Positions 3,334 through 19,849 of a stretch of DNA of 24,000 nt are shown piece by piece. The notes beneath the pieces are model-generated. The model worked only from the letters and a program-made list of their open reading frames with translations, made no database searches and had not been told where the DNA came from. The stretch comes from Minisyncoccota bacterium (lineage in GTDB: Bacteria > Pseudomonadota > Alphaproteobacteria > Elsterales > Elsteraceae): contig JASGCE010000009.1 in the NCBI GenBank assembly GCA_030054295.1, forward strand, positions 6,212-30,211, written 5' to 3'. Numbering within the stretch: the stretch's first letter is position 1; every line of letters begins with the position of its first letter. Made by a program: the position numbers and the translations under genes.

Positions 3334-3364
3334 CTTAAGAACTCCTGTTTACTGGTTCGTGCCT

Positions 3365-3392
3365 TTGTAGTCGAAGCCGCCACAGCGGTCAA
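3365..3392 (-). promoter_or_regulatory. Candidate sigma-70-type promoter for rpmH-rnpA
   Basis: The reverse strand reads TTGACC (3392-3387), a 16-nt spacer, then CTACAA (3370-3365), about 30 nt upstream of the rpmH GTG. This is a pattern match only. Confidence 0.3.
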
Positions 3393-3466
3393 GGGATAAT
3401 TTTTGGGTGTGGTGGTGCAGGGAATTCTCCAGGGCATTTTATAAATTATCGCAGCAGTATATGAAA

Positions 3467-3645
3467 CCTCCCCTTCTTTAGAAGGGGAGGATAGAAAACC
3501 TTAGCGAAGCCGAAGGCGAGCGTTAGGTTTTCTTGGAGGGGTTGCTATTTCTTTATATTCAACATGTTAACCAACCCCTCCAAGTCTCGCTAGGCAGCAA
3601 GCTGCCAAGCTGCGACTATCCTCCCCTTCCTGGGGAAGGGGAGGT
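3467..3645. repeat. Nested-hairpin repeat, copy A (two inverted units around a 27-nt spacer)
   Basis: The left unit is CCTCCCCTTC-ttta-GAAGGGGAGG, atag, an internal hairpin, then CTTGGAGGGGTTG (3467-3544). The spacer is 3545-3571. The right unit is CAACCCCTCCAAG, an internal GGCAGC-aa-GCTGCC hairpin, ctat, then CCTCCCCTTCC-tgg-GGAAGGGGAGG (3572-3644). Copy A is roughly 90 percent identical by hand alignment to 10988-11169. Confidence 0.85.
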
Positions 3646-3674
3646 AAAGTGAGTCCATTATCCATAACCCCCCC

Positions 3675-4985
3675 CTAAACAAAGGGCAAATAATAGTCCC
3701 TTTTGGCGGTTTCATCGGCCAGGGCAGTGACCTCGGCGGCCTCGAATTTTTTTATGGCAATGTGGTTGGTGACCAATTCTGGCCCCAAAGCCTCGCACAG
3801 GGCAGTATCAGCGGCCAGATCATTCAGGGCCTCCAGCAAGGAACCTGCCACCGAATCTCGGCTATCCTGGCTGTTGATGCAATCGCCGGTCTCGGCCAAG
3901 GGCAATTCATAGTCATGAATAAAGCCAAGCCGCGCCGCCTGAAGCAGGGCCGCCGCCGCTGTATAGAGATTACAGCCCGCATCGGCCATCCGATGTTCGA
4001 TCCGCGACTTTGCCCCAGCCTCAGCCGAGAGGCGAACAGTCACGCCGCGATGGTCATAGCCCCAATTCTGCCAATAGCCCGACAGGCTGGCCGGTTGCAA
4101 CCTTTGATAGGAATTCATCGTCGGGGCCAGAATCCCGGCCAGGGCGCGGTGGTGCCGAACCATCCCCGCCGTCGCCCCACGCATTATTTTGGACATCTTA
4201 GCCCCCGCGAGATCGTCGCGGTGGGCATCGCCCAGGGCATTTTTACCCTCCTGATCGGCAAGGCTGATGTTATAATGTACGCCACTCCCTCCCAGGCTCA
4301 GGATCGGCTTGGGCATAAAGCTCAAGACCAGGCCACATTGATGGGCCACTTCCCGCGCCATTATTTTAAACAGAAAAATCTCGTCGACGGCCTTGACCGC
4401 ATCGTCAAAGACCAGAGCAAACTCGACCTGCCCGGGATCAAATTCGGTCTGAAAGGATTCGATCTTAAAGCCTGCCTCCGTTGCCCTATGCCACAGCTCA
4501 TCCATAAAACCATTGGGATCATTGATGGGGCCAGTACTATAGACAAAGGGGGCACCCATGGCGGCGGGCTGATAGGCGCCAGTCTGGCTGTTGCGTTCAA
4601 AAATATAGGCCTCGAGTTCAATCCCCAGTTTGGGGTTAAGCCCAAGTTTTTGCCACTCGGCCACCGCCCTTTTTAAGGCCCCGCGCCCGCACAGGGCCAG
4701 GGGCTGGCCATAGGCATCAAACTGGTCGCAGATGACGACATCGGTATCCTCCTCCCACCCTGTCCTAATATCTGCGCTACTGTACCGCGCCTCCATATCG
4801 GGTAGGCCAATGGTCAAGCCACCCCCCGGGGCATCGGTGAGCGTCCGACTATAGGTCAGGACATAGATTCCCAGACAGAAGCGCGAGGTACCGCCCGCGA
4901 CATTTGGTTTAAGCGGCGTATATTTGCCCCTCGGTAAGCCCAAATGGTCACTAAAGAACAGGCGCAATCTTTTGTTTTGGGTCAT
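3675..4985 (-). CDS. Glutamine synthetase family protein (gamma-glutamyl-amine/amide synthetase-like)
   Basis: 436-aa ORF with GS catalytic-domain motifs: GSGVHYNISL (compare GSGMHxHxS), NSYQRL (compare NSYKRL) and RIEHRMADAGCNLY (compare RxExRxxDxxxNPY). A strong AAGGAGGAG lies upstream of the ATG. Size and context suggest a PuuA/GmaS/IpuC-type enzyme rather than housekeeping GlnA; that part is inference. Confidence 0.8.
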   Translation of the reverse strand: MTQNKRLRLFFSDHLGLPRGKYTPLKPNVAGGTSRFCLGIYVLTYSRTLTDAPGGGLTIGLPDMEARYSSADIRTGWEEDTDVVICDQFDAYGQPLALCGRGALKRAVAEWQKLGLNPKLGIELEAYIFERNSQTGAYQPAAMGAPFVYSTGPINDPNGFMDELWHRATEAGFKIESFQTEFDPGQVEFALVFDDAVKAVDEIFLFKIMAREVAHQCGLVLSFMPKPILSLGGSGVHYNISLADQEGKNALGDAHRDDLAGAKMSKIMRGATAGMVRHHRALAGILAPTMNSYQRLQPASLSGYWQNWGYDHRGVTVRLSAEAGAKSRIEHRMADAGCNLYTAAAALLQAARLGFIHDYELPLAETGDCINSQDSRDSVAGSLLEALNDLAADTALCEALGPELVTNHIAIKKFEAAEVTALADETAKRDYYLPFV

Positions 4986-5042
4986 ATTGGCTCTCCTCCT
5001 TGATTTGGTTGGTTTGGTGAAATTATCGCTTTATCCTTTAGT

Positions 5043-5277
5043 AAGGTCTGAAAAACTCCAAATTTATAGTGCAACCCCTCCAAGCAAACCTAAATCTTGA
5101 CTTCGTCTTCGCTAAGGTTTGCTATCCTCCCCTTCTAAAGAAGGGGAGGTGTAAGCTATTGTAATCATTGCTTCTTTATCCCCCCTTCTTCAGAAGGGGG
5201 GAATAGTCGACCCGTCAGCGAATGCTGACATTCGTCAGCGGGTGAAGTTTACTTCTTAGTGAGACTAAGGGGGGTTG
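5043..5277. repeat. Nested-hairpin repeat, copy B (leader motif plus unit 1 forward plus unit 2 reverse)
   Basis: The leader AAGGTCTGAAAAA is at 5043-5055. Unit 1 (CAACCCCTCCAAG...GAAGGGGAGG) is at 5072-5149. Unit 2 in reverse orientation (TCCCCCCTTC-ttca-GAAGGGGGGA...CTTAGTGAGACTAAGGGGGGTTG) is at 5179-5277. The reverse complement of 5072-5277 matches 10860-11065 with about 9 mismatches in 206 nt by hand alignment. Confidence 0.9.
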
Positions 5278-6602
5278 TCTGACTGTATTTGTAAAGCGAC
5301 TTTATCAGACCCTCCTTTAGTAATATCCATCGGCAATGACTTGATCCCGCCAATAAAATTAGACCTGAGATAGCGATGGGGTTCGGTCAGGTCCATCGCG
5401 CCAACTCGGGCGATCCATTCTTGCAGAAACACCTTGACCTCCAGCCGCGCCAACCACATGCCGAGGCAGACATGGACTCCGCCCTGACCAAAGGCAATGT
5501 GCGGATTGGGATTTCGGCTGAGGTTAATCTCGTGCGGATCTTCAAATACCGTCTCGTCGCGGTTGCCCGAGACAAACCACAGAATCACCTTATCGCCTTT
5601 TTTGATGGTCTTACCGTGAAGCACCATGTCGCGCTTGGCCGTGCGTCGAAAATGCATGGTGGGAGAGGCCCAGCGAATCATCTCGTCGGCTGCCAGGGCC
5701 CAGACCTCGCTGTCATTACCGCCGTTACGCGCCGCCTCCTGTAACTGTTTTACCAGGGCCGGTCGGCTGGCCAGAGCAAAGAGAGTCGCCGCAATCGAAT
5801 AGCGCGTCGTGTCATTGCCCGCCGCAACCAGCAGACAAAAGAAATTCCTAAATTCCTGAACACTGATCTGATTGCCATTTTCGTCGGGCTGCAGGACCAG
5901 GCTTAGGACTCCCTCGGTGTCGCCAATCCGTTGCTTCTCGGCCATCAGTTTTTGGGCATAGTCAAACAGTTCAATCCCGGCCGGGGAACGGAAGGGCATC
6001 AGGCGATAGTCATCGGTATCGGTTTGATCCAGCACATGTTTGGTGAATTCAGGGTCGGTATTGGCAATCAGTTGATCGCCCTTCTCGACCAGCCATTCAA
6101 AGTCTTCATGCTTGGCCCCCAATATTTGCCCCAGAACCCGCATCGGAATTTGCCGCGCGACCTGTTTGGTGGCATCGATCTTTTGTTCCTTGAGGGCCTT
6201 TTGAATCACATCGATACAGATCTCGCGAATCTGGTTCTCATATTCCAAGACCACCGGTCGAGAGAAGGCCTTGCTGACAATCATCCTCAGGCGGGAATGT
6301 TCGGGCGGGTCTGTTTCTTGGAAGGTGCGCCGCGCCAGATATTCCTCCTCGGTCTGGTCTTCCATGCGAATGCCATGGGCTGAACTATAGTCCTGATATT
6401 CGCGGTTAATGGCCAGAATATCGCTATGGCGGGTAATTGACCAAAAGCCTTTTCCCTTGCCATCAAGGCCTGGCATCTCCTGCCAATAGACCGGGTCGTC
6501 GCGGCGCAGTTTGGCAAAGAAGTTAAAGGGCACGCCATGGATAAAACTATCATGGGATGCGAGATCAATCTCACCCTGATCGCTTGGTGTAAAACCTGTC
6601 AT
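5265..6602 (-). CDS. Cytochrome P450 monooxygenase
   Basis: 445-aa ORF with the I-helix AAGNDTTR, the ExxR motif (EMIRW) and the heme-thiolate loop FGQGGVHVCLG. No ferredoxin or ferredoxin reductase gene is present in the window. Confidence 0.9.
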   Translation of the reverse strand: MTGFTPSDQGEIDLASHDSFIHGVPFNFFAKLRRDDPVYWQEMPGLDGKGKGFWSITRHSDILAINREYQDYSSAHGIRMEDQTEEEYLARRTFQETDPPEHSRLRMIVSKAFSRPVVLEYENQIREICIDVIQKALKEQKIDATKQVARQIPMRVLGQILGAKHEDFEWLVEKGDQLIANTDPEFTKHVLDQTDTDDYRLMPFRSPAGIELFDYAQKLMAEKQRIGDTEGVLSLVLQPDENGNQISVQEFRNFFCLLVAAGNDTTRYSIAATLFALASRPALVKQLQEAARNGGNDSEVWALAADEMIRWASPTMHFRRTAKRDMVLHGKTIKKGDKVILWFVSGNRDETVFEDPHEINLSRNPNPHIAFGQGGVHVCLGMWLARLEVKVFLQEWIARVGAMDLTEPHRYLRSNFIGGIKSLPMDITKGGSDKVALQIQSDNPP

Positions 6603-6633
6603 AACCTCTCCTCCTCAATCTCTGATCATAGGT

Positions 6634-7449
6634 TTATGGCTCGATAATCTCCAGACTCTTGCCGCCATTCCAGACCACGCCAATCTGCCGATAGAAGGCA
6701 CCGATCATTTCGCGCGGCATCAGGCGGGTTAATTCTTCGGTCGGGGAGTCAAACAGCGAGAACTGTTCAACCTCCCCCTGCCAGACCGGGCCGCCTTCAA
6801 ATTTGGCGGCGGTCGATTCGATAAGTTCAGCAAAGACATCGCCAGAATCGGGCTGGGTGGAGCTGGTCTGGATGGCCGGGTAAAAACGGTGATGGGCCAT
6901 GGGGTGACCATTGACAAAGCCGTTCTTATCGGTGGTTTTGGTCAAGCGAATCACCGCCTCCGACAGGCGACGGTCTCCCGCTGCCAATGTCGCGCCAAAT
7001 CGCGCTCCAGCCTCCAACCGCGGCGCCGGGGCAAAGGGGTGAGGGCGAGTCATATGAATCGAACCCATTTTCTTGGGATAGCCCTGGTGAATCCCTCGCA
7101 ACATCGCAAAATCCTTATCGACCCAAATATAGACACAGCGCGAATAGGTCGCCCCCTGATAGTCACAGCGCACCACGACAAAGGCTTCTTTATATTGCGA
7201 GCGAATCGGGTCGAGCATCTCGTCATGGCTGGCACCACAGGATTGCCAATCGGCCCAGATCAAGGCCACCGCCCCCGGGTCATCCTTGGCCAGTTTTAAC
7301 GGCGGCGGCAGCAGTTCGGCAACCAGACTGGGATCGGTGCGATATTCAATGGTCAAGAGATCGCCAGAATAGTGCCAGGGCGGAGCGGGCAGAAGCGAAG
7401 ACTCACCGCTCCCCGACCTTGGATAGAAAAAACCTTTGTTACTGGTCAT
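6634..7449 (-). CDS. Acetoacetate decarboxylase (ADC) family protein
   Basis: 271-aa ORF. The N-terminal LLPAPPWHYSGDLLTIEYRTDPSLVAELLPPPL pattern and the size match my recollection of the ADC/MppR-like family. This was not verified by search. Confidence 0.65.
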   Translation of the reverse strand: MTSNKGFFYPRSGSGESSLLPAPPWHYSGDLLTIEYRTDPSLVAELLPPPLKLAKDDPGAVALIWADWQSCGASHDEMLDPIRSQYKEAFVVVRCDYQGATYSRCVYIWVDKDFAMLRGIHQGYPKKMGSIHMTRPHPFAPAPRLEAGARFGATLAAGDRRLSEAVIRLTKTTDKNGFVNGHPMAHHRFYPAIQTSSTQPDSGDVFAELIESTAAKFEGGPVWQGEVEQFSLFDSPTEELTRLMPREMIGAFYRQIGVVWNGGKSLEIIEP

Positions 7450-7461
7450 GATTATTTTCCT

Positions 7462-8310
7462 TTAACCCCGGATCGGTGCGCGAATGCCGCGAAACTCCCA
7501 GTCGCCGCCGAGGGCGGTCGAGACCACCTCCTCGGACTCAGTCGGTTGCGCCCCGACATCATCGCGAATGGCAGTTGGCCCCTCGACAATGAGGTTGCTG
7601 AGGCGACCCAGTCCCTCGACCTCGACCTCGACCAGATCGCCGGGCTTAACCGGCCGAGAAAAGGCTGGGGTACCCGACAGCAGGACATCCCCCACCTCGA
7701 GCGTGATGGTACGGGCAATATCCGCGACCAGATAGTGCATATCCCAGGTCATTTCGTCGGTATTGCCATCCTGTTTAATCTCGCCATTGACGAAGGTGCG
7801 GAGGTATTTATGCCTAAAGTCCCAACCCTCGACCAGACCCGGGCCGATGGGGCAAAGACTATCGCTACCCTTGACCCGCAGCATCGAACCCGCATCGGTA
7901 TCGCGGAAATCATGTAGCCCATAGTCATTGGCAATACTGTAGCCGCGAATATAGTCACCCGCTTGACTGGGGGAAATATTGCGGCAGGTGCGACCAATCA
8001 CAATGGCCACCTCCCCCTCGAAATTGAGCCATTTACAGCCCTTCGGCCGCACCACCGCGCCGCCATGACTGTTCAAGGCCGAGGTCGGTTTATGGAAGTA
8101 GGTCGGGGTCTTGGATAGTTTGATCTGGAACTCCTTGACCCGCGAGACATGGTTGAGATGGACACAGATGATTTTACTCGGCACCACCGGCGGCAGGTGA
8201 TGGGCGTCGCTAATCTTGATGCGGCGACCATCACCCGCGACCAAGTCTTCGCCATCGCGCACCACCTCGGCGACTATGCCGTTCAATAGGATTCTCCGAA
8301 TTTCGCGCAT
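7462..8310 (-). CDS. Fumarylacetoacetate hydrolase (FAH) family protein (HpaG / 2-oxo-ene-dioate hydratase or decarboxylase-like)
   Basis: 282-aa ORF with FAH-fold patterns: KIICVHLNH, FEGEVAIVIGR, SIANDYGLHDFR and GDVLLSGTPA. Confidence 0.85.
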   Translation of the reverse strand: MREIRRILLNGIVAEVVRDGEDLVAGDGRRIKISDAHHLPPVVPSKIICVHLNHVSRVKEFQIKLSKTPTYFHKPTSALNSHGGAVVRPKGCKWLNFEGEVAIVIGRTCRNISPSQAGDYIRGYSIANDYGLHDFRDTDAGSMLRVKGSDSLCPIGPGLVEGWDFRHKYLRTFVNGEIKQDGNTDEMTWDMHYLVADIARTITLEVGDVLLSGTPAFSRPVKPGDLVEVEVEGLGRLSNLIVEGPTAIRDDVGAQPTESEEVVSTALGGDWEFRGIRAPIRG

Positions 8311-8335
8311 GGTTTTTACCCCCCCTTTGCTATGG

Positions 8336-9202
8336 TTATTGTCGCTTAAAGTTAATATGAACCTGTCCGGTGCCGATTGAATTTTCGTAAAGACTATAGA
8401 GTTCGCCGCGGTCGCGCCAATTGGCCTCTCCCATCGCCGCGGCCATCATGAGATAGGGGCCAAAGGAGGCCTCGGGTTTAAAGGTGAGGAATTCGGGCAT
8501 GGTGGCAATGACTCGACCATGGTCTCCCGCCTTGAGCCATTCAATCCGCTCGAGATCCGCTGCGGCATGTTCGGGGCTGAAGATATGTTTAACCGCCGCC
8601 GATTCATGCTGGCGCAGCAGTTTGAGCGACCAGAACCTATGACTCATGGCCCCCGAAGCAATCAGCAGGATTTTGCGCGGCTTTTTAAAATCGGCAATCG
8701 CATCGCGCAGAGCCCGACCCGCGCGTAAAAAATCATCGGTCTCTGCCGTCTGCGGGCAGCTTATCGAGACCCAGGCCTCACTGCCATATTGCAAATATTC
8801 GGCGATATTGACCGTCGCATAATGGATCGGCAAATAGGGATCATCGATGGGGGTAATCCAGGTGCCATGGGCCGCGGCATGACCGGCCCAGGCCTGTGAG
8901 AATTCTGGATCGCCGGGCAGGTCATAGGGAATCTGACTCATGCCGCGTGGCAATTCTTCGGAGGTGAACTTGCCACTCCGCCTTTTATGGCTGGTGACGA
9001 CAAACTCGACGGTGGTAAACCAGTGGGAGTCAAAAACAATCACCAGATCGGGGCGGAGTTTTTCCATCACCTCGCTTTTAAAGCGATTCAGACCCTCGAC
9101 GAGACTAAAGTCCTCCCCCTCGTTCAACTCCCGTCGGATCGATTCGGGGAGCATGATGGTGGGAACATGGGCCAATAAAGCATTACCAACAACCTCTGCC
9201 AT
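8336..9202 (-). CDS. Class III (LigB-type) extradiol ring-cleavage dioxygenase
   Basis: The track ORF (8336-9355) overlaps the ALDH 3' end. The internal ATG at 9202 has a GAGGA Shine-Dalgarno sequence and gives 288 aa starting MAEVVGNALLAHVPTIM. The motifs VIVFDSHWF and ASGAMSHRF are typical of LigB/HpaD/MhpB-like enzymes. Confidence 0.8.
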   Translation of the reverse strand: MAEVVGNALLAHVPTIMLPESIRRELNEGEDFSLVEGLNRFKSEVMEKLRPDLVIVFDSHWFTTVEFVVTSHKRRSGKFTSEELPRGMSQIPYDLPGDPEFSQAWAGHAAAHGTWITPIDDPYLPIHYATVNIAEYLQYGSEAWVSISCPQTAETDDFLRAGRALRDAIADFKKPRKILLIASGAMSHRFWSLKLLRQHESAAVKHIFSPEHAAADLERIEWLKAGDHGRVIATMPEFLTFKPEASFGPYLMMAAAMGEANWRDRGELYSLYENSIGTGQVHINFKRQ

Positions 9203-9227
9203 TATAATTTCCTCGGTTCCATTAAAA

Positions 9228-10679
9228 CTAAGCCAGGTCGGGAGCAAAGACGCGGCATTTAAGATCGGCATAGAAGTCAAAAGACCAGTGCCCCCCTTCT
9301 CGTCCAATCCCCGATAGTCCATTGCCGCCAAAGGGTTGCCGCAGATCGCGGACAAAAAAGCAATTGTTCCAAATAATTCCAGCCGGGATGGCCTGGCTGA
9401 CCCTTTCAGCGCGGGACCTGTCGCTGGTGATAATCACCGCCGCCAGCCCGTAATCGGTGTCATTGGCCAGGGCAATGGCCTCAGCTTCGCTGCTGAAGCT
9501 GCTCAGGGTCAATACTGGCCCAAAGACTTCGGACTGCCAGATTTCGCTGCTGGCGGGCGGGTCGAGGAACAGGGTCGGGCTAAAATACAATCCGCCCAAT
9601 TCTTGATTGGGATTACCGCCGAGGGGGCAGACGAGTCCAGACTCCTTGGCCCGCTCGACAAAACCCTTGACCCGATCAAAATGAACCCGACTGATCTGGG
9701 GGCCGAGGTCAATGGCCTCGTCACGAGGGTCACCCTGGCGTAGAGTCCTCGCCCGCTTGACAAAGTTTTCGAGAAACTCGGCGCGGATGGATTGCTCGAC
9801 CAGAATTCGCGTTCCGGCCAAACAGACCTGGCCAGCATTGTCATATTGTCCGACCGCCAGCTCCACCGCGCGATCCAGATCAGCATCGGCAAAGACAATA
9901 AAGGGCGATTTTCCCCCCAATTCAAATGACAATGGCACCAGATTTTGCCCAGCCGCGACGGCAATCGAACGGGCGGTAGCGACCGAACCGGTAAAGGCCA
10001 TCCGCCGCAGCCCGCGATGGGCCGCCAATGCTGCGCCAGCCTCGCTACCTATGCCCTGCACGACATTAAAGACTCCCGCTGGCACATTGGCCTCGGCAAA
10101 AACATCGGCCAGCAGCGAAGCGGTCAAGGGTGCCCATTCGGGGGGCTTAAAGACCACCGTGCAACCCGCCGCCAAGGCCGGGGCAATCCGCCAAGAGCCC
10201 AACATCAGCGGGGCATTCCACGGGGTGATGATTCCCGCCACGCCACTGCCTTCCCACGAAACCTTATTAACATGGTCGCGGGTGATAAAATCATCGTGAT
10301 GGAGCCGCATCAATTCTTCGGCAAAATAGCGGAAATTATGGGCCACCCGCGGCATGACCCCGCGGCGATGGGATCGCAACAGAGAGCCATTGTCGGCGGT
10401 CTCGACCTGGGCCAGAGTCTCGATCCGCCCCTCGATCAGTTCGGCGACCCTTAGCAAATGGCCGGCCCTTTTTTCTGCCGTCAGGTTTTTCCACTGCGGA
10501 AAGGCCTGCTGTGCCGCGGCAACCGCGCGGTCAACCATTGCGGCATCGGCAGCGGCAACCTCGCCCAAGGGAGATTCATCGATGGGGGAAATATCCAAAA
10601 ACGACCTAGGGGAATCGACCCGCTCGCCGCCAATAAAATGACGATGATCAACCCGGTGGTTTTCGATTGAGATCGACAT
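9228..10679 (-). CDS. NAD(P)-dependent aldehyde dehydrogenase (hydroxymuconic-semialdehyde dehydrogenase-like)
   Basis: 483-aa ORF with the catalytic Glu motif ELGGKSP and the catalytic Cys motif GQVCLAGTR. It is the first gene of the five-gene operon. Confidence 0.9.
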   Translation of the reverse strand: MSISIENHRVDHRHFIGGERVDSPRSFLDISPIDESPLGEVAAADAAMVDRAVAAAQQAFPQWKNLTAEKRAGHLLRVAELIEGRIETLAQVETADNGSLLRSHRRGVMPRVAHNFRYFAEELMRLHHDDFITRDHVNKVSWEGSGVAGIITPWNAPLMLGSWRIAPALAAGCTVVFKPPEWAPLTASLLADVFAEANVPAGVFNVVQGIGSEAGAALAAHRGLRRMAFTGSVATARSIAVAAGQNLVPLSFELGGKSPFIVFADADLDRAVELAVGQYDNAGQVCLAGTRILVEQSIRAEFLENFVKRARTLRQGDPRDEAIDLGPQISRVHFDRVKGFVERAKESGLVCPLGGNPNQELGGLYFSPTLFLDPPASSEIWQSEVFGPVLTLSSFSSEAEAIALANDTDYGLAAVIITSDRSRAERVSQAIPAGIIWNNCFFVRDLRQPFGGNGLSGIGREGGHWSFDFYADLKCRVFAPDLA

Positions 10680-10810
10680 TTATCCCCCCCTTTATGGCAT
10701 TTGTTTCTTTGTTTTGAACTCAGTCCCGATCGCTTTTAAAAATCGTTCGACATCGTATAGTTCCATCGTAAAATGCCTATGTCAAGGAATAATTTTTTGG
10801 ATTTATGCAT

Positions 10811-11169
10811 TGTTCACTTGAGAAAGGTCTGAAAAAGTGATTTTTTAATGACAATCGGGCAACCCCCCTTAGTCTCACTAAGCAGCAAGCTGCATCCGCT
10901 GACGCATGTCAGCATTCGCTGACGGGTCGACTATTCCCCCCTTCTGAAGAAGGGGGGATAAAGTAGCAATGATTACAATAGCTTACACCTCCCCTTCTTT
11001 AGAAGGGGAGGATAGCAAACCTTAGCGAAGACGAAGTCGAGCTTTAGGTTTGCTTGGAGGGGTTGGTTTTTGTTTATAATCAACAGAGTAACCAACCCCT
11101 CCAAGTCTCGCTAGGCAGCAAGCTGCCAAGCTGCGACTATCCTCCCCTTCCTAAAGCAGGAAGGGGAGG
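10811..11169. repeat. Nested-hairpin repeat, copy C (most complete: leader plus unit 2 plus unit 1a reverse plus unit 1b)
   Basis: The leader TGTTCACTTGAGAAAGGTCTGAAAAA is at 10811-10836. Unit 2 forward is at 10860-10959, unit 1a reverse at 10988-11065, a 27-nt spacer follows, and unit 1b forward is at 11093-11169. The left part is the inverted copy of B and the right part is a direct copy of A. Confidence 0.9.
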
Positions 11170-11206: not shown

Positions 11207-12706
11207 TCAATCGATCTGGTTTTTACCGAGCTCACGATAGGCACTCGGATTGCGTTTTGCCAAGATCGAGCCAATGATAAAGCCAAAAACCGCCGCAGCC
11301 GGCACCGATAAAGGCAAGAGATAGGCCATAACCACCGTATAGGGTTTAGCAGGATCCGCCCCGATCAAAATGTCGAAGTTGCGCGAGACCAGAACCGCAA
11401 TCATTGTCATCAATACCCCAGCAAAAACTGGCATGACCGACATGGTGAAGAACTCCTTGCCCTGATCCGACATTCTTAAACTATAGGAAGATATGGCGAA
11501 GGAGACCAATGCCATAATGCTGATAATCGCCAAGGTTCCCGTATTGGTCATCCAGGTAAACATCCCCAGCACCGGGTCAATACCCGACAGAGCAAAAAGC
11601 GCGACAAAGAGGATTGAGATAATGGTTTGCATTATCGAACTCTTATGGGGGCTTTGGTGAATCTCGTGGGTGTGGCCAAGATGGCTGGGCAGCAAACCCT
11701 CTCTCCCCAAAACATAAAAATAGCGCGAGGTCGCATTGTGAAAAGCCAGCAAGGCCGCAAAGAGACTCGAGACAAACAGAAGCTGGATCGGCAGGGTCAA
11801 CCAACTACCGGCATATTTGTCGGTCAGACTATAGATAAAGAGCGTCGGGTCGGGAACGCCATCCGGAGTCTTGAGTCCGGCGATGGTCTCAACGAGTCGT
11901 TCGGCCCCCGCACCCTCGACCATTAACCAGGTGGTGACGGTGTAAAAGATTCCAATCGCCAGCACCGCAGCATAGGTCGCGCGGGGAACGGTTTTTTTCG
12001 GCTCCCTGGCCTCCTCCGAATAGATGGTCGTCGATTCAAAACCCATGAAGGAGGCAAAACAGAGCAGGAACCCCAAAATCGGCGTCCCGCTCAACAGGGC
12101 ATGAAGGCTGAAGCTGGTCATACCAATGCCGTTACCACTGGCTCCACCCTTACCCACAATCAACAGGTCGAGGATAAAGACGGCCAGATATTCCAAAATC
12201 ACCAACAGGGTCAAGATCTTCATCGATAGTTCGATCTTACGATAGCCCATAATACTGATGAGAAGCACACAAAAACCAGCATAGAGATACCAGGGCAAAT
12301 AGAGGCCGAATAGTGCCCCGATGGTTCCCTCAGTCACCGCACCAAAGAGTCCATAGAGTCCAATCTGCATCGTAATATAGGCCAGCATCGCCGTATAGGC
12401 CGTGGCGGCTCCAATCCGACCGTTAAAGCCCTGAGAAGCAAAGGCATAAAACGATCCAGCATTGTTAATATATCGGGCTATTCGCGTATAGCCGACCGAA
12501 AAAACCAGCAGCAATAGCGTAATCAGCAAAAAGGCAAAGGGAACCCCGGCCCCATTACCTAGCAACATGCCAACCGGCGTGCCACCAGCAATCCCGGTCA
12601 AGGGAGCCGCCGCCGAGATCACAAAAAAAGTAATCGCCGCTACCCCAAGCGAACCTTGGCGCAGACGATTTTTAGATTTTTGCGGGTTTGATTCTGATTC
12701 AGTCAT
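11207..12706 (-). CDS. APC-superfamily amino acid/amine permease
   Basis: 499-aa, highly hydrophobic ORF with about 12 TM segments judged by eye. An AGGAGG Shine-Dalgarno sequence lies upstream. The composition and length are typical of APC permeases. Confidence 0.8.
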   Translation of the reverse strand: MTESESNPQKSKNRLRQGSLGVAAITFFVISAAAPLTGIAGGTPVGMLLGNGAGVPFAFLLITLLLLVFSVGYTRIARYINNAGSFYAFASQGFNGRIGAATAYTAMLAYITMQIGLYGLFGAVTEGTIGALFGLYLPWYLYAGFCVLLISIMGYRKIELSMKILTLLVILEYLAVFILDLLIVGKGGASGNGIGMTSFSLHALLSGTPILGFLLCFASFMGFESTTIYSEEAREPKKTVPRATYAAVLAIGIFYTVTTWLMVEGAGAERLVETIAGLKTPDGVPDPTLFIYSLTDKYAGSWLTLPIQLLFVSSLFAALLAFHNATSRYFYVLGREGLLPSHLGHTHEIHQSPHKSSIMQTIISILFVALFALSGIDPVLGMFTWMTNTGTLAIISIMALVSFAISSYSLRMSDQGKEFFTMSVMPVFAGVLMTMIAVLVSRNFDILIGADPAKPYTVVMAYLLPLSVPAAAVFGFIIGSILAKRNPSAYRELGKNQID

Positions 12707-12998
12707 GGTTTCCTCCTGTAAGTGAAGATTTTTATGAGAATGGCTTATCTAACCATAGTTCTGGTGCGAAGATCAGCAACCCCTGCCTTGCCATAACACC
12801 TTGATAGGAGGGATTATAGATGGATTATTGATAGTTTAAGGATCGACAGTACTGTTCGTTCTCGAATGATCCACCAATTAATTTAATTTTACAAGATTTT
12901 TTTTGCAATCTCTGAAGCCTCAGCCTATTTTAGCCAATTGATGAGACAGACGCTTGTATAGTCTATAGTAAACCATCTTGACCCGGTTGGTAGTCACC

Positions 12999-13487
12999 AT
13001 GTCGATTAAACCCACTGCCGAGATTCTCGGCGAACAGAAGGTTGCCTCCCTTCCCATCAACCGCGAGGCCATGGCCCTGGTCTCCAACCTGCACCGCGCC
13101 TCGAGTCTGATTCGCCAGCATTTTGAAGCCCTGGTTTTAAGCACCAATGGACTCCATTGGTCGGCCTTTGTGACTCTCTGGTGTTTGTGGATTTTTGGCG
13201 AATTGCCGACCCACCGACTCTCGCAAGAGGTCGGGATTGCCAAAAGCAGCCTATCGTCGATTTTGAATGACCTCGAGAAACGCGGGTTTTTAGTCCGCCG
13301 CACCCCACCCGAAGAAAGGCGGCAATGCCTAGTGCAACTGACCGCCAAGGGCGAGCAGCTATTGTCCGATATATTCCCCCGCTTTAACGAGGAGGAGGCA
13401 GCAATTCTGGTGGGTTTGACCCCCTCCGCCATGGCCGTGACGACCAATCTGCTGAGGGATTTAATTGCCAAACTGGATGAGGAATGA
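12999..13487 (+). CDS. MarR-family transcriptional regulator
   Basis: 162 aa from the ATG at 12999 (the track uses a TTG at 12978). The winged-helix region is LSQEVGIAKSSLSSILNDLEKRGFLVRRTPPEERRQCLVQLTAKGEQLL. The gene is divergent from the permease. Confidence 0.8.
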   Translation: MSIKPTAEILGEQKVASLPINREAMALVSNLHRASSLIRQHFEALVLSTNGLHWSAFVTLWCLWIFGELPTHRLSQEVGIAKSSLSSILNDLEKRGFLVRRTPPEERRQCLVQLTAKGEQLLSDIFPRFNEEEAAILVGLTPSAMAVTTNLLRDLIAKLDEE

Positions 13488-13658: not shown

Positions 13659-14417
13659 CTACCCCAGCAGATCACAGCCGAGAAACCGCCGACCCTGAGC
13701 CATCGCCGCCGCCATCACCGAAAAACTTCCCGCCGCCGGATCAATCACCAGATCCCCCGGATTAGTCACCGCCTCGATCAACTGCTTCTGCAATTCAACC
13801 GGCTTAGAATGACTGTGGCTGCGATCGGTAATCTTTTCATCCCACACATCCGGAATATTATGCAAACACCATACCCCCTTAGCCCGCACCGGAGACTTCT
13901 GAAAAATCACCAAATATTCCGCCGTCCGCCGCGTCCGATAACCCATGCCAATCCGCTTCTTATTCCAAGTCACCATATCGACCAGATTGAGTTCGGTGCC
14001 AGCCATCAAAGACTCCAACCCACTGCAAACAATAAACTTATCAACCCACAGCATGAGATGCCCCTGCGGCGTTAGTACCCGCTCAATCTCGCTGAGGAAC
14101 TCGGCAATAATATCCTCCGGCATCTGCGGCAAACTGGCGCGATGCTTCTGCCGCGCCCCCTCATTACCATAGGCCTGCTTGTCGAGCACCGTCCGATATT
14201 GCGGATCAAAAAACACCAGCGGCACAGTCTTGTCCTCGACCCGCGCCAACAGCTCCAAACCATTCATCTGCTGCCGCTGATTGATCGCCAAACCCTCAAT
14301 CCCCTTAAAAACCGGCGCCTTGGCCGTGCGAAGCTTGGAATAGACCGACTTGATATTATCAGAAGTAACCGTCTTATTGGGTGCCGCCGCCGCTGCTATA
14401 ATTTGAGGCATCTTCAT
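13659..14417 (-). CDS. Site-specific DNA methyltransferase, N6-adenine/N4-cytosine class (beta-type motif order)
   Basis: 252-aa ORF. Motif IV, VFFDPQY (a DPPY variant), comes first. The AdoMet-binding region HSKPVELQKQLIEAVTNPGDLVIDPAAGSFS lies near the C-terminus. G+C resembles the host genes. Confidence 0.85.
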   Translation of the reverse strand: MKMPQIIAAAAAPNKTVTSDNIKSVYSKLRTAKAPVFKGIEGLAINQRQQMNGLELLARVEDKTVPLVFFDPQYRTVLDKQAYGNEGARQKHRASLPQMPEDIIAEFLSEIERVLTPQGHLMLWVDKFIVCSGLESLMAGTELNLVDMVTWNKKRIGMGYRTRRTAEYLVIFQKSPVRAKGVWCLHNIPDVWDEKITDRSHSHSKPVELQKQLIEAVTNPGDLVIDPAAGSFSVMAAAMAQGRRFLGCDLLG

Positions 14418-14424
14418 ATCCTGC

Positions 14425-14497
14425 TGTAACTGTGACCAAGTATCTGTAAAAAATTATTACAGAATAACCAGTTACAAGCAATAGTTAATGTTAACTA
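14425..14497. promoter_or_regulatory. Cluster of nested and perfect palindromes between the two methyltransferase genes
   Basis: TGTAACTG (14425-14432) pairs with CAGTTACA (14469-14476). This encloses CTGTAA (14444-14449) paired with TTACAG (14457-14462). TAGTTAA-tg-TTAACTA follows at 14482-14497. Function is unknown; candidates are a terminator for the C5-MTase gene and/or an operator-promoter for the downstream MTase. Confidence 0.3.
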
Positions 14498-14512
14498 CCG
14501 AGCATTATCTTA

Positions 14513-15637
14513 TTAGCCTTTGATTATATTGGATAAAATTGAATCAGCCAAGGCTTGAGATAACAGAGGCGGCACCGCATTACCAATTTGTAAATTGCGA
14601 TCTCCCCGCGAACCATAGAATTGATAGCTGTCAGGAAAGGATTGCAGCCTCGCCCCCTCCCGCGTCGTCAAGGGACGCGCCACCCTGGGGTGAATACAGC
14701 GGGAGGATGATGGAGTGCTAAGGTTACGGGTGATGGTCGGTGAAGGCCGATCCCACCACAGCCGCGAATAGGTGTTTTTAAAACCCGAACTCGGGCGAAG
14801 TTCAGGCGGCAGGTCTTCAGGCGAGCCTCCATCGGGCAAGGCCTCCATCAAACGAATGAGCTGCGGATTGTTCTTTGGCGCATTGTGATCCGATAGTTTA
14901 GTCGGGGCCGATTCGCGCATTTTTATTTGATATGGGTTTTGGGCTGCGGTTCGATAATGGTCAGACTCCTCGCCCGAAGCAATCAGCGGCAAATCGCCAA
15001 TGGCATCGGATAATGTCAAATAGGAAAGTTTCTTAGTGTCAAATAGGGATTCTGATTTTTGCGACTCGCCATGGGTAGAATCGGGATAGGTAAATTGGGT
15101 ATTTAATTTTGAACCGACGATTATAAGTCTTTCTCGGATCTGCGGGACACCGTAATCGGCGGCATTAAGGATTCTATACTGTACCTTGTAACCAATCGAT
15201 TCAAATAATTCAATAATATTTGTCAGAAGTTTTCCTTGATCCATCGACTCCAAACCCTTTACATTCTCGAAAATAAAGAGTTTAGGGTTAATCTCGGTAA
15301 GTAATCGAAAATACTGGTTAAATAATCGAGCCCTTGGATCATCTGAATTTCGCTTGCCAACGGTAGAAAAGGCCTGACAGGGCGGCCCGCCGATAATGAC
15401 GTCAATCTCACCCGATTTGATGCCTAAATCTTGGGACAGATCCTCAGCCGAAAACTCGGCAATATCCCTTTGATAAATCGGAACGGACGGGTGATTGAGA
15501 CTATAGGCCTTGGCCATGGCGGGCAAAATTTCATTCGCCGCGACGATTTTAAAATTCTGATTCTGACTGAAACCATAACTCAGCCCACCAACACCAGCAA
15601 AAAGATCGAGGAGTTTGATTTTTGAATCGGTTGGCAT
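14513..15637 (-). CDS. DNA (cytosine-5) methyltransferase
   Basis: 374-aa ORF with the full m5C-MTase motif set: I LDLFAGVGGLSYGF, IV GGPPCQAFS, VI FIFENVKGL, VIII QIRERLIIVG, IX-like RPLTTREGARLQSFPD and X GNAVPPLL. The gene is AT-rich relative to its neighbours. Confidence 0.95.
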   Translation of the reverse strand: MPTDSKIKLLDLFAGVGGLSYGFSQNQNFKIVAANEILPAMAKAYSLNHPSVPIYQRDIAEFSAEDLSQDLGIKSGEIDVIIGGPPCQAFSTVGKRNSDDPRARLFNQYFRLLTEINPKLFIFENVKGLESMDQGKLLTNIIELFESIGYKVQYRILNAADYGVPQIRERLIIVGSKLNTQFTYPDSTHGESQKSESLFDTKKLSYLTLSDAIGDLPLIASGEESDHYRTAAQNPYQIKMRESAPTKLSDHNAPKNNPQLIRLMEALPDGGSPEDLPPELRPSSGFKNTYSRLWWDRPSPTITRNLSTPSSSRCIHPRVARPLTTREGARLQSFPDSYQFYGSRGDRNLQIGNAVPPLLSQALADSILSNIIKG

Positions 15638-15640
15638 AAT

Positions 15641-16423
15641 TTAATACTCGAATTTAATGTCTGTATATTGTGGTGGCGGTTCCGTAATTTTCCAAATGAA
15701 GAAATTCTGGTCGATGTTAAAAACGGTCTGTCCCTCCATTTGCTGGCGGGAAATCCAATGCATATTGGATTCTTCGATTTGGTTTAATTTTAAAAAAGCA
15801 ACTTGACCATTATAAAGATCAAAATGAATAGCGATGGTTTCAATTCCATCTTCCCGATCTAGTCGTTTAGCCTCGATTACCTTATGTTGTTTGATGTCAT
15901 TGATTCCCGTAAAACCAGTTTGCATTTCTATATGGACACGATTTTTATGGTTTAACTCTATCTCAATATCTGCCTTTGGCGTTCGTTTAAATGTATCGAG
16001 ACTGGAAAAATCATCATCCCCAACAAAAGAAACTTGGCTGAAATCGACATCAAAAATTTGGCATAGGGATTTACGGAAATAGTTGGCAAAAATATATCCG
16101 CGCATCCAAGAGAAATAGACCTGCTCGGGTCGCCGACCTTGATTGTTCAGTCTTGGCAAAAGATGATTATTGACAATAATTTCATAGGGTCGATTGATAT
16201 AGTCTGCGATAAAACCATCTAATGAATCAGGTCTAAGTTCCTGAATAATAACGCGATTAATGACACGAATAGACTCTGCCAATCTCTCATTCAGTTTAGC
16301 AATAAAATGCATATCCACTTCGGCAACAATGTCCTTGGCACCGAAGAAATTCTTGACTGCCGATTGATTGGTAAATCCGAGTTGACGGCGATAGTCTTGA
16401 AAATAGTCAGTGCCAATTAACAT
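15641..16423 (-). CDS. Uncharacterised 260-aa protein, candidate Type II restriction endonuclease partner of the C5 MTase
   Basis: Its stop lies 3 nt upstream of the MTase start on the same strand, and it shares the same AT-rich composition. I recognise no family signature. The segment PKADIEIELNHKNRVHIEMQ could be a PD-(D/E)XK-like D...ExQ variant, but that is speculative. Confidence 0.45.
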   Translation of the reverse strand: MLIGTDYFQDYRRQLGFTNQSAVKNFFGAKDIVAEVDMHFIAKLNERLAESIRVINRVIIQELRPDSLDGFIADYINRPYEIIVNNHLLPRLNNQGRRPEQVYFSWMRGYIFANYFRKSLCQIFDVDFSQVSFVGDDDFSSLDTFKRTPKADIEIELNHKNRVHIEMQTGFTGINDIKQHKVIEAKRLDREDGIETIAIHFDLYNGQVAFLKLNQIEESNMHWISRQQMEGQTVFNIDQNFFIWKITEPPPQYTDIKFEY

Positions 16424-17405: not shown

Positions 17406-17855
17406 ATGCTGTTTTTTGAAGCCATAGCCGCCCTCGGGGTCATTGTCCTGATGCTTTTTGGGCTGTTGCCGATGGTGGCGTTTTTGGCTGGGGTGTTTTT
17501 GGCACCGCGCTCTAGGCCTTTAAAAAGATTCCCTTTTCTGCTCATGCATCTGGTGATTTACTGCGTCGCGGTTTTTGGGTTTTTAAGTTTTGTCACCCTC
17601 AGTATCTTGACCCTTGGCTTTGGTTTGCCGCTGGTCTATCTTTTTGTCTGCCTGATAATTTTTTGGAGTGCCCGCACCCTGACTCGCCGCGCGGTGGATG
17701 CTGGCGCGAGCCGCCTGCTGGTGGTGGTCTATGGCCTGATGCTCAGTTGGTCGATTCCCCTGAGCCTGAGTATCATCGGCCTTGGATTGGGAATAGCCTT
17801 GCTCAGTCTGTCCTTTTTAATCTGGCTCTATCTGTTGGTTAAACCGTCGGTATAG
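17406..17855 (+). CDS. Small integral membrane protein (4-5 TM), unknown function
   Basis: 149-aa hydrophobic ORF with AAGGA upstream of the ATG, divergent from ilvE. No family was recognised. Confidence 0.5.
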   Translation: MLFFEAIAALGVIVLMLFGLLPMVAFLAGVFLAPRSRPLKRFPFLLMHLVIYCVAVFGFLSFVTLSILTLGFGLPLVYLFVCLIIFWSARTLTRRAVDAGASRLLVVVYGLMLSWSIPLSLSIIGLGLGIALLSLSFLIWLYLLVKPSV

Positions 17856-17889
17856 AGCGTTACATCAATCTTAATGAAAGGTAACTATA

Positions 17890-18825
17890 ATGGCAGAAGA
17901 ATTTAGCTTCAGTATTAGCAAGTTAGAAGACTACCCTGAAGGAGTACTCAATATTTCGAGCGATAGAATTCAAGCCTATTTGATTCCAAGAGAACGACTT
18001 GAAGAAACTGCAAAAATCATAAATGACTTACGAGAAAGTAAGTCTTGGGTCTATTGTCTTTCGAACCAGAATTGCTTCGATTCAAGAGGACAAGAACTCC
18101 AGGGTTACATTGGTAAGACTGATGATAGTTTTATTACACGCATGAAAACTCACGCTAACAGTAGCCGTAAAGATTTTTGGTCACAGACAATTGGCTTTAC
18201 GAGCTCAAACGGTAATCTCACGAGCCATCACTCAGCTGTTCTTGAGTACAATTTTTATAAACTAGCAAAATCCCGCAGCCGTTGGAAAATTACAAACGAT
18301 AAGAGTCCAAGTGAAATCACACCAAACTCCCACGACACTGTTCGGGTTAATGTCTATAAACAGGAAATTTTGCGAGTTTTTAGAATTCTAGGGTGGAATC
18401 TGTTTGAGGAAAAAATAGCAGATGAAGAAATAAATGCTATAGCGGATGTCGGTAACATTCTTGCGACAGAGGACCTGCAAGATAGCAATTCCATTAAATC
18501 GGAAATGTGGAAAGAATTTGAAAAATTAAAGTTTAAAAACCTCACAAACCAGGAATTGATTTTACTCTGTGAAAAACACAAATGGAATAAAAACACTGTA
18601 CGCAGAGAATATCCTGCCTTTAAACGAGCCAACGGCATGGAGGTCAAAGAGTTTCGTTTATATCCAGTTAAGGTCAATGGAACCCCTTATTCATCGGTTC
18701 GCGCCGCGATGAATGAGCTCGGGATTGAGGGGCATTCGCAGCAGATAAGGGACAAACTCAAAGAATTAAATATCTATGAGATTGTTTCCGATGGCATTCA
18801 ATATAGATTTGAACTTGATGAATAA
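17890..18825 (+). CDS. GIY-YIG nuclease-like protein (free-standing homing-endonuclease-like)
   Basis: 311-aa ORF. The N-terminal half reads WVYCLSNQ...GYIGKTDDSFITRMKTHANSSRKDFW...AVLEYNFYKLA, which fits the GIY...YIG...R...H...E pattern of GIY-YIG nucleases. The C-terminal VNGTPYSSVRAAMNELGIEGHSQQIRDKLKE looks like a small HTH module. The gene is strongly AT-rich compared with its flanks. The assignment is by motif only. Confidence 0.5.
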   Translation: MAEEFSFSISKLEDYPEGVLNISSDRIQAYLIPRERLEETAKIINDLRESKSWVYCLSNQNCFDSRGQELQGYIGKTDDSFITRMKTHANSSRKDFWSQTIGFTSSNGNLTSHHSAVLEYNFYKLAKSRSRWKITNDKSPSEITPNSHDTVRVNVYKQEILRVFRILGWNLFEEKIADEEINAIADVGNILATEDLQDSNSIKSEMWKEFEKLKFKNLTNQELILLCEKHKWNKNTVRREYPAFKRANGMEVKEFRLYPVKVNGTPYSSVRAAMNELGIEGHSQQIRDKLKELNIYEIVSDGIQYRFELDE

Positions 18826-19849
18826 TCAGCCCCCCTTCACCCCTGACTATCCCTTTGGTGCTGCGCCGGCGATTGGCTCGGTGACTGAACCTGTCACGGG
18901 AATCACCTGGTTCAGGTTGCCGCTGCCCTTTGCCCTCAACCATATTAACTGCTGGATATTTGGCGCGGCAAATGACTGTGCGATTATCGATGCTGGCCAT
19001 TATGACGAGGCGACCAAATCGATTTGGCAACCGCAGATTGCTCGGCGAAAAATCAACCAGATTGTCATTACCCATTACCATCCCGACCATCTTGGCTGTG
19101 GCGAGTGGCTGCAATCGCTCACGGGTGCTGCGGCCTATATGTCGCGCGAGGAACATCGGATTGCCGCCGAGACCCGCGACATGTCGGATGAGCTCGAGGC
19201 GCAACATCGGTTAAAATTCTTCGCCCTGCATGGACTGTCGGGAAAGGCCCTGGCCGAGCAACAACACTTTAGTTTCGGCTATGCCATGTCGGTGCCGCAC
19301 CTGCCGCGCGAGCCACACTGGCTGGTTGATGGCGACACCATCCCCCTCGGCGGCGCGGACTGGCGCGTCCTTTCTGGCGGCGGCCACAGTAATGACCAGA
19401 CCATGCTTTATGAGTCGCGGCGCAGGATTCTGCTGGCGGCGGATCAGGTTTTGCCATCCATCTCGCCCAATATTTCGGTCTGGTTTGACGCGCCGGATGC
19501 TGACCCGCTGGCCGAGTTTTTTAAGTCTCTGGCGCGTTTAAGGGCCGAGATTCCCGCCGATGCCCTGGTGCTGCCCTCGCACGGTCGGCCCTTTTATGGG
19601 CTGCACGGTCGGATTGATCAGTTGGTTGCGCACCATCAGGATCGGCTGGAACTGCTGCTGCGGCTGATGACCGCGCCGGTCACAGCGGCGGAATCTTTGA
19701 CCCCGCTTTTTGAACGGGAACTCGATGATTTTCAAATCAGTTTTGCCATGGGCGAGGCATTGGCGCACCTTAACCATCTGGTGACTCTGGGCCTGGCCGA
19801 ACGGCAGGAGTTAAATGGAGTTATGCGATTTGCGAAATCGAGCCGTTAA
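18818..19849 (+). CDS. MBL-fold metallo-hydrolase
   Basis: 343 aa from the ATG at 18818 (MNNQPPF...). It carries the HxHxDH motif THYHPDHLG and later GGGHS. The start overlaps the stop of the upstream ORF in the sequence ATGAATAA. Confidence 0.85.
   Translation: MNNQPPFTPDYPFGAAPAIGSVTEPVTGITWFRLPLPFALNHINCWIFGAANDCAIIDAGHYDEATKSIWQPQIARRKINQIVITHYHPDHLGCGEWLQSLTGAAAYMSREEHRIAAETRDMSDELEAQHRLKFFALHGLSGKALAEQQHFSFGYAMSVPHLPREPHWLVDGDTIPLGGADWRVLSGGGHSNDQTMLYESRRRILLAADQVLPSISPNISVWFDAPDADPLAEFFKSLARLRAEIPADALVLPSHGRPFYGLHGRIDQLVAHHQDRLELLLRLMTAPVTAAESLTPLFERELDDFQISFAMGEALAHLNHLVTLGLAERQELNGVMRFAKSSR

Follow-up and report, generated by a model that had tools for sequence, protein, structure and literature searches.

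MITEs, or miniature inverted-repeat transposable elements, derived from insertion sequences (ISs) of the IS5 family belong to a general class of bacterial mobile DNA that has been reviewed previously (PMC10969869), and the target duplication of IS5 itself is a 4-bp sequence of the form YTAR (PMC5009759). Here, a repeat family with IS5-like ends is described around a catabolic operon in a 24,000-nt stretch of DNA, hereafter the window, from the assembly GCA_030054295.1 (Minisyncoccota bacterium; contig JASGCE010000009.1, positions 6,212 to 30,211). Within the window, two 206-nt arms in inverted orientation (5072-5277 and 10860-11065) lie on either side of five genes designated ALDH, LigB, FAH, ADC and P450. 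Comparison of the arms with each other, with related copies and with related genomes indicates that they are very probably copies, placed independently of each other, from one subfamily of a hairpin-rich, non-coding mobile repeat family of high copy number, and not the two halves of a MITE pair that mobilized the block as a cassette, as the first-pass annotation of this DNA had proposed.

The family shares several features with IS5-derived MITEs, including a length of approximately 230-300 bp, the lack of an open reading frame (ORF), high copy number, a preference for intergenic sites, 18-bp ends (GGAAGGT...GAATAAG) that agree with those of IS5 in 14-15 of 18 bases, duplication of a 4-bp, A/T-rich target that mostly seems to fit YTAR, and the presence or absence of individual copies between related genomes. 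However, it differs from them in that its interior consists of exchangeable palindromic modules instead of IS-end remnants, that numerous copies have a single end or are nested or mosaic (the complete copy in the window being permuted in module order), and that neither the window nor ~340 kb of related loci yielded a cognate transposase. Similarities also extend to the REP/BIME and REPIN sequences of gamma-proteobacteria and to the RIME and Sm-repeats of rhizobia, which are likewise intergenic mosaics of short, alternating palindromic units with characteristic spacers, show compensatory changes in their stems, and are found between genes of the same operon; those families are linked to RAYT and lack terminal repeats and target duplications, whereas the present family has DDE-type ends with duplications, and the window showed no RAYT. 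Correia elements of Neisseria and the palindromic elements of Rickettsia are small, highly structured MITEs that lie in or next to genes and are co-transcribed with them, and they can add in-frame peptides or gene ends, a behavior paralleled here by a 16-codon tail of the P450 gene; their ends and targets are different (Correia elements duplicate TA), and no sequence similarity exists. Composite transposons such as Tn5 and Tn10, together with IS-bounded invertible segments, also carry genes between two inverted copies of a mobile element, but the copies considered here are non-autonomous, one possesses its own target duplication, the other lacks an outer end, and the genes between them lie in their ancestral context.

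In the window, the family is represented by seven units of 72-98 nt arranged in three clusters (3455-3644, 5072-5277 and 10860-11169), which fill three of its six long intergenic gaps and within each of which the orientation of the units alternates. Each unit comprises a 13-nt head, CAACCCC(T/C)CC..G, a variable hairpin, the tetranucleotide CTAT, and a G-rich hairpin (CCTCCCCTTC-loop-GAAGGGGAGG). A reading of the heads as integron attC-like sites was set aside on inspection, as their core order does not fit RYYYAAC/GTTRRRY. The repeat features of the window are as follows.

5041..5315, minus strand: complete MITE of 275 bp, recognized by its terminal repeats, its fold and an empty site in relatives
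5037..5040, unstranded: left target-site duplication TTTA, within the 11-nt direct repeat TCCTTTAGTAA at 5034-5044
5316..5319, unstranded: right target-site duplication TTTA, within the 11-nt direct repeat at 5313-5323
5072..5277, minus strand: left arm, a 206-nt core between the 13-nt heads CAACCCCTCCAAG and CTAAGGGGGGTTG
10822..10859, plus strand: IS5-like terminal repeat GAAAGGTCTGAAAAAGTG and linker of the right cluster, 25/38 identical to the counterpart at 5315-5278
10860..11065, plus strand: right arm, consisting of units U3(+) and U1(-)
11066..11169, plus strand: 27-nt spacer and third unit U2 of the right cluster, U2 being 60/60 identical to 3572-3631
3455..3644, plus strand: third cluster, a canonical doublet between the GS-like (glutamine-synthetase-like) gene and rpmH, forming a direct repeat with 10976-11152

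When 5072-5277 is reverse-complemented, it forms an ungapped alignment with 10860-11065 in which 197 of 206 positions agree, confirming the earlier count of about nine mismatches between inverted repeats of about 206 nt. In an automatic repeat search, the arms are longer, each reaching 250 nt (5072-5321 and 10816-11065) at 90% identity. An arm match of this size in 24 kb rules out chance. Four of the nine mismatches (columns 24, 27, 30 and 33) distinguish the stem GCAGC/GCTGC at 10882-10893 from GAAGT/ACTTC at 5244-5255 and constitute two compensatory pairs within a single 5-bp stem, in agreement with the first-pass annotation. Identity between the arms is uneven, falling from 99% in the center to 66% at the ends: a single mismatch lies in the central 133 nt and six lie in columns 1-46, the perfect runs measure 74, 58 and 23 nt, and the stretches of terminal repeat and linker that adjoin the arms (5278-5315 and 10822-10859) agree at no more than 25 of 38 positions.

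The left arm is part of a complete element that carries the evidence for its own insertion. This 275-bp element is composed of a terminal inverted repeat, a 20-nt linker, U3, a 30-nt spacer, U1 in inverted orientation, a 13-nt linker, and the second terminal inverted repeat; the two ends, GTAAGGTCTGAAAAACTC at 5041-5058 and the reverse complement GGAGGGTCTGATAAAGTC at 5315-5298, each match the family consensus GGAAGGTCTGAATAAGTC at 15 of 18 positions. Folded as RNA, the element reaches z = -9.1, and its only coding content is the captured tail of the P450 ORF. Since it has both terminal repeats and its own TTTA duplication, the element was evidently inserted alone, and a target duplication around one arm is the trace of a solo insertion, unlike that of a composite transposon. 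A duplication of 11 bp was judged less likely than one of 4 bp, as elements in a related genome (below) consistently show 4 bp beside the conserved GGAAGG tip. The recognition of the arms as MITE-like stands, whereas the left arm does not lie immediately after the P450 gene as had been stated: the P450 stop codon (TAG, 5265-5267) and the last 16 codons fall within the repeat, so that the protein now ends in DITKGGSDKVALQIQSDNPP. In silico removal of the element and one TTTA yields GAT ATT ACT AAA GGA TAA, encoding DITKG followed by a stop, which we infer to be the ancestral end of the P450; the restored end sits 45 nt upstream of the start codon of the GS-like gene and its AGGAGG ribosome-binding site. 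The same site is empty in the closest relative, an ENA contig (L001), where a 28-nt gap without any repeat separates P450 from the GS-like gene, and in the complete genome of Hypericibacter terrae, where the gap is 26 nt.

The wider family provides the anatomy against which these copies can be read. A scan for the head-to-head signature in one genome per species (185,579 species) returned 56 loci, 52 of them in one metagenome-assembled genome (MAG), GCA_030054015.1 (MAG09), which is also the second-closest source of the operon proteins (P450 69% and ALDH 75% identical). The MAG09 contigs sampled hold 54 doublet cores (at least 54 copies) in these 52 loci, 22 of the 54 lying no more than 150 nt from a contig end. 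In L001, whose P450 is 87% identical, at least four units occur within 1.4 kb and carry the head variant CAACCCCACCAAG/CTTGGTGGGGTTG. Hairpin folding with z < -2 is seen in 94% of the 67 distinct variable segments, and compensatory variants are numerous. No Rfam family was matched at the gathering threshold, and at E<=1 only sub-threshold matches to eukaryotic miRNA and snoRNA hairpins appeared. The canonical MAG09 element (232-296 bp when complete) runs from a terminal repeat through a G-rich hairpin, a variable hairpin and an inverted head to a spacer, followed by a head, a variable hairpin, a G-rich hairpin and the second terminal repeat. The 18-bp consensus end is conserved on 73 termini independently of the sequence outside it, 4-bp direct repeats rich in A/T (TAAA, TTAA, TTAG or CTAA) flank the paired ends, and the same ends also enclose other, unrelated interiors. 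When compared with the ends of IS5A of E. coli K-12, the consensus agrees with GGAAGGTGCGAATAAGCG at 14 of 18 and with GGAAGGTGCGAACAAGTC at 15 of 18 positions. Taken together, the 18-bp ends, the 4-bp duplications and the IS5-like consensus amount to the structure of MITEs that stem from an element of the IS5 family.

MAG09 also contains other repeat families, among them tandem 41-nt units (ATTACCCGCCGCAAAAAAGGGGCGAAAAAAAGGGAGCGTC...) and a long perfect palindrome (GAGTCGGGTAATCCCCCAGGAGG...) (L002 4130-4392; L016, L026), some of which sit between the same IS5-like ends. A BLAST search against plasmids gave a 28-nt match to the end consensus on an Acidithiobacillus caldus plasmid; the adjacent ORFs have no transposase domain, and the lead was dropped. 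The label of MAG09, Candidatus Symbiobacter (Comamonadaceae), is odd beside the next-nearest operon homologues, which are found in Rhodospirillales (Dongia, Hypericibacter).

The right cluster differs from the left element in having only one recognizable end. Good matches to the end consensus occur in the window at 5041 (+), 5315 (-) and 10822 (+) only; an outer terminal repeat of the right cluster was not found, the best local alignments being no better than those of random windows, and terminal repeats are no longer recognizable at the 3455 cluster, where the best local alignments likewise score as random windows do. The canonical head-to-head doublet of the right cluster is made up of U1(-), the spacer and U2(+), and it is this doublet that recurs as a 177-nt direct repeat (3455-3631 and 10976-11152, 160/177 identical), with the GS-like gene and the five genes between the two copies. 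The cluster is mosaic, since its U1 matches the left element at 88 of 90 positions and the 3455 cluster at 80 of 90, while its U2 is identical to that of the 3455 cluster. The identity gradient between the arms and this mosaic structure suggest exchange among copies; the near-identical central 133 nt, compared with the divergent ends, suggests later gene conversion among family copies.

Nor is the right arm immediately upstream of ALDH, as had been claimed, since 181 nt, including the promoter, separate it from the start codon (10679). The upstream region contains the following feature.

~10722..10786, minus strand: conserved ALDH promoter/operator, TTGACA ... TATACGATGTCGAACGATTTTT, identified by aligning it with the sequences upstream of ALDH in MAG09 (L060) and H. 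terrae (L063)

Both the -35 box, in CTTGACA, and the palindrome-like operator are kept in MAG09 and H. terrae, and the latter is probably a binding site for MarR. The promoter falls inside the region 10680-10810 to which the first-pass annotation had assigned it. However, it lies between ALDH and the end of the right cluster (10822), and hence within the arm-bounded segment, so that an inversion would carry it along with the genes instead of detaching the operon from it as predicted; the gene that would be uncoupled is the GS-like one. Within the left element, the operon strand has no predicted terminator-like site, which makes read-through into the GS-like gene plausible despite the strong fold of the element.

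The genes concerned, and their ancestral neighbors, are listed below.

3675..4985, minus strand: GS-like gene (gamma-glutamyl ligase type), conserved sixth gene of the operon, parted from P450 by the MITE
5265..6602, minus strand: cytochrome P450 gene, of which 5265-5315 (the 16 codons GGSDKVALQIQSDNPP and the stop) is MITE-encoded
6634-7449, minus strand: ADC-like gene
7462-8310, minus strand: FAH gene
8336-9355, minus strand: ORF of the LigB-type dioxygenase, homologous to relatives from residue 52, with the real start near 9202
9228-10679, minus strand: ALDH gene
11207-12706, minus strand: amino-acid permease gene, ancestral operon neighbor
12978-13487, plus strand: MarR regulator gene, ancestral operon neighbor

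In H. terrae, genes for the permease, MarR, ALDH, LigB, FAH, ADC, P450 and the GS-like protein occur together with those for a ferredoxin and a ferredoxin reductase, and the eight genes common to this genome and the window are orthologous neighbors with 53-81% identity. In L001, an orthologous GS-like gene (75% identical) likewise follows P450. As P450 is followed by the GS-like gene after 26-28 nt in both relatives, the left element splits an operon, and gene order in these genomes indicates that the conserved operon is at least ALDH-LigB-FAH-ADC-P450-GS, with the permease and MarR genes as ancestral neighbors. The arms consequently do not enclose exactly the operon, contrary to the earlier description: its sixth gene lies outside them, and the left element sits within the end of the P450 ORF. 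A distant complete genome has the same flanking genes, GS-like at one border of the block and permease and MarR at the opposite one, so the block is not a cassette, and no anomaly in G+C content runs across it. Comparison of synteny, which had been proposed as a check, shows ancestral flanks in H. terrae and an empty P450-GS junction in two relatives.

Insertion sites vary by lineage, and none reproduces the pair seen in the window. In MAG09, a canonical element occupies the space between ALDH and LigB, which is filled in that genome only, and two of its contigs overlap by 18 nt within this element (L060 3160-3246 and L002 1-170), the assembly having broken at the repeat. In L001, an element array and a DUF559 ORF, not ADC, precede P450; this small, endonuclease-like ORF is embedded in the repeat array (L001 903-1160). 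The divergent permease/MarR pair is flipped between genomes, the permease gene adjoining ALDH in the window and the MarR gene doing so in H. terrae and MAG09. Such a flip fits an inversion with one breakpoint at the right cluster and lends weak support to a link between repeats and rearrangement, and none to a cassette.

Other differences were observed in the surroundings of the operon. In H. terrae, the GS-like gene is followed by genes for ferredoxin and ferredoxin reductase; the window (3338-3674, compared with L063 11634-13204) lacks them, and a repeat doublet and then rpmH-rnpA-yidC come after its GS-like gene. Two stretches have a low G+C content (0.40-0.43 versus ~0.55): 13659-16423, which looks like a restriction-modification island, with genes for an N6/N4 DNA methylase and for a C-5 cytosine methylase besides an unassigned 260-aa ORF, and 17500-19000, which holds an unassigned 311-aa ORF.

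The origin that would best account for these data is a MITE with 18-bp IS5-like ends that duplicates a 4-bp, A/T-rich target and would depend for its movement on an IS5-family DDE transposase acting in trans from another place in the genome. Its target sites are TTAA, CTAA, TTAG or of the TAAA type. Stop codons and the loops of older copies frequently offer sites of this kind, and the elements consequently accumulate in short intergenic spacers and within each other, with alternating modules. In MAG09, many ends do lie within the loop of a G-rich hairpin that belongs to an earlier copy, one example of the junction being CCCCCCCTTCCTGCTTAG|GGAAGGTCTGA (loci such as L005 7798, L046 2996 and L050 4726), and such insertions result in nested, clustered arrays; the hairpin CCTTCC-loop-GGAAGG looks like two element tips that abut each other and seems to be favored as a target. 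One copy was inserted 5 nt before the ancestral P450 stop, splitting the P450-GS junction, and a second cluster, now one-ended and mosaic, is located just upstream of the ALDH promoter. The inverted orientation of the arms and the presence of five genes between them would then follow from insertion density and have no functional meaning.

A number of observations weigh against this account. A perfect 4-bp duplication is present in only 4 of 14 paired MAG09 elements (approximately one third), most of the others agreeing at three of four positions. While TTAA, TTAG and CTAA fit YTAR, the TAAA of the window copy and of L004 is one base off, and several pairs are imperfect. No IS5-family transposase with matching ends was detected by tblastn with InsH in the window or the ~340 kb of related loci, which represent a small and biased part of the genomes and make this absence weak evidence; no pair of family ends 0.8-2.5 kb apart occurs in the loci, and the one pair separated by more than 600 nt spans 704 nt. 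The inferred link to IS5 thus draws on end sequence and target duplication only. Moreover, the 206-nt core is far more alike between copies than the terminal repeats are, with a sharp boundary at the 13-nt heads, which makes simple transposition of whole elements insufficient and calls for a second copying mechanism or gene conversion. Finally, the module order of the left element is permuted, its terminal repeat adjoining a head, whereas in the canonical MAG09 order it stands beside the G-rich hairpin; the arrangement, of which two copies are known, could be a chimera.

Alternative explanations may be considered in light of the same evidence. According to the first, the arms are passive MITE copies that serve as substrates for RecA-dependent crossover, which would invert the 5.5-kb segment in part of the population, deprive the GS-like gene of co-transcription with the operon, and place the operon convergent with the permease gene. 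The minimum for RecA recombination is about 25 bp, and the perfect runs between the arms are sufficient; hence, homologous inversion between the arms appears physically possible, and the identity gradient together with the mosaic right cluster suggests recent exchange. Inverted IS copies are known to recombine with inversion of the intervening segment (PMC5009759). However, the inverted state has no comparative support, the present orientation is the ancestral one relative to the GS-like gene, and the equally good direct repeat would instead delete the block. No second assembly of the organism emerged from exact P450 look-ups or from a metagenome scan with the unit signature, whose single match, in a high-G+C contig, was a chance one. 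No domain of a site-specific recombinase or transposase was identified in the 20 larger ORFs of the window. An inverting segment of this kind is considered unlikely.

A second alternative regards the units as REP/BIME/REPIN-type palindromic modules copied by a RAYT (IS200/IS605-like) or by a hairpin-templated process, with the IS5-like ends as an occasional carrier. The units are indeed short, at 72-85 nt, always palindromic, alternating and separated by typical spacers, as in BIMEs; the high proportion of folding variable segments and their compensatory variants, the conserved CTAT abutting the G-rich hairpin, and the much stronger conservation of the head-bounded core relative to the terminal repeats point in the same direction. 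What speaks against such an origin is the existence of complete elements with DDE-type hallmarks, terminal repeats and target duplications, the absence of a gene for a RAYT (Y1 transposase) among those seen in the window, and the lack of the hallmark GTAG, the tetranucleotide beside the hairpin being CTAT. This origin is therefore regarded as improbable.

According to a bolder proposal, the arms and their partner at 3455-3644 would be actively recombining in the population, so that inversion or deletion of the five genes acts as a reversible or irreversible switch. Such a switch would uncouple the P450 and ring-cleavage genes from the gene for the gamma-glutamyl ligase, and the near-perfect central 133 nt would be the footprint of the exchange; more broadly, the MITE family would be self-targeting, its G-rich hairpins mimicking two abutting tips around a target and thereby explaining the nested arrays and permuted orders. 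On present evidence, there is little probability that this proposal is correct. It is still harder to sustain that the repeats act as functional RNA, with the complementary 206-nt segments pairing in a long permease-to-GS transcript, or the local hairpins acting alone, as RNase III sites, stabilizers or terminators that set the relative expression of parts of the operon. The very strong fold of the element, a G-rich hairpin followed by a T-rich run downstream of the GS-like gene, and the location of all these genes on one strand would suit such a role, but the absence of an Rfam match, the different positions in different lineages, the lack of a terminator-like site on the operon strand of the left element, and a family spread like that of selfish DNA make it very unlikely. 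The weakest explanation, in which two MITE-like arms jointly moved ALDH-LigB-FAH-ADC-P450 into the site, can appeal to the inverted, 95.6% identical arms, the plus-oriented end to the left of the block (5041), and the coincidence of synteny breakpoints with repeats in relatives, as upstream of P450 in L001 and exactly at the right cluster for the permease/MarR pair, but it is largely refuted by the two ends and duplication that belong to the left element alone, the right cluster's lack of an outer terminal repeat, the ancestral flanking genes, the tight and repeat-free P450-GS junction in two relatives, and the location of the relatives' breakpoints elsewhere than at the arm positions of the window.

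With regard to annotation, reading the arms as separately placed copies of a mobile repeat family means that the five genes should not be described as a mobile or switchable cassette, which avoids over-interpretation; they belong to a conserved eight-gene catabolic neighborhood comprising permease, MarR, ALDH, LigB, FAH, ADC, P450 and the GS-like ligase. In a poorly sampled lineage, the intergenic space is saturated by a previously uncharacterized family of MITEs with IS5-like ends, which also fragments the lineage's assemblies (22/54 cores at contig ends) and splits its operons, and in the window an insertion has rewritten the C-terminus of the P450. Recombination between the direct repeats would delete the GS-like gene and the five genes, and if it is true that the copies recombine, the family would be the main source of local gene-order changes between these genomes.

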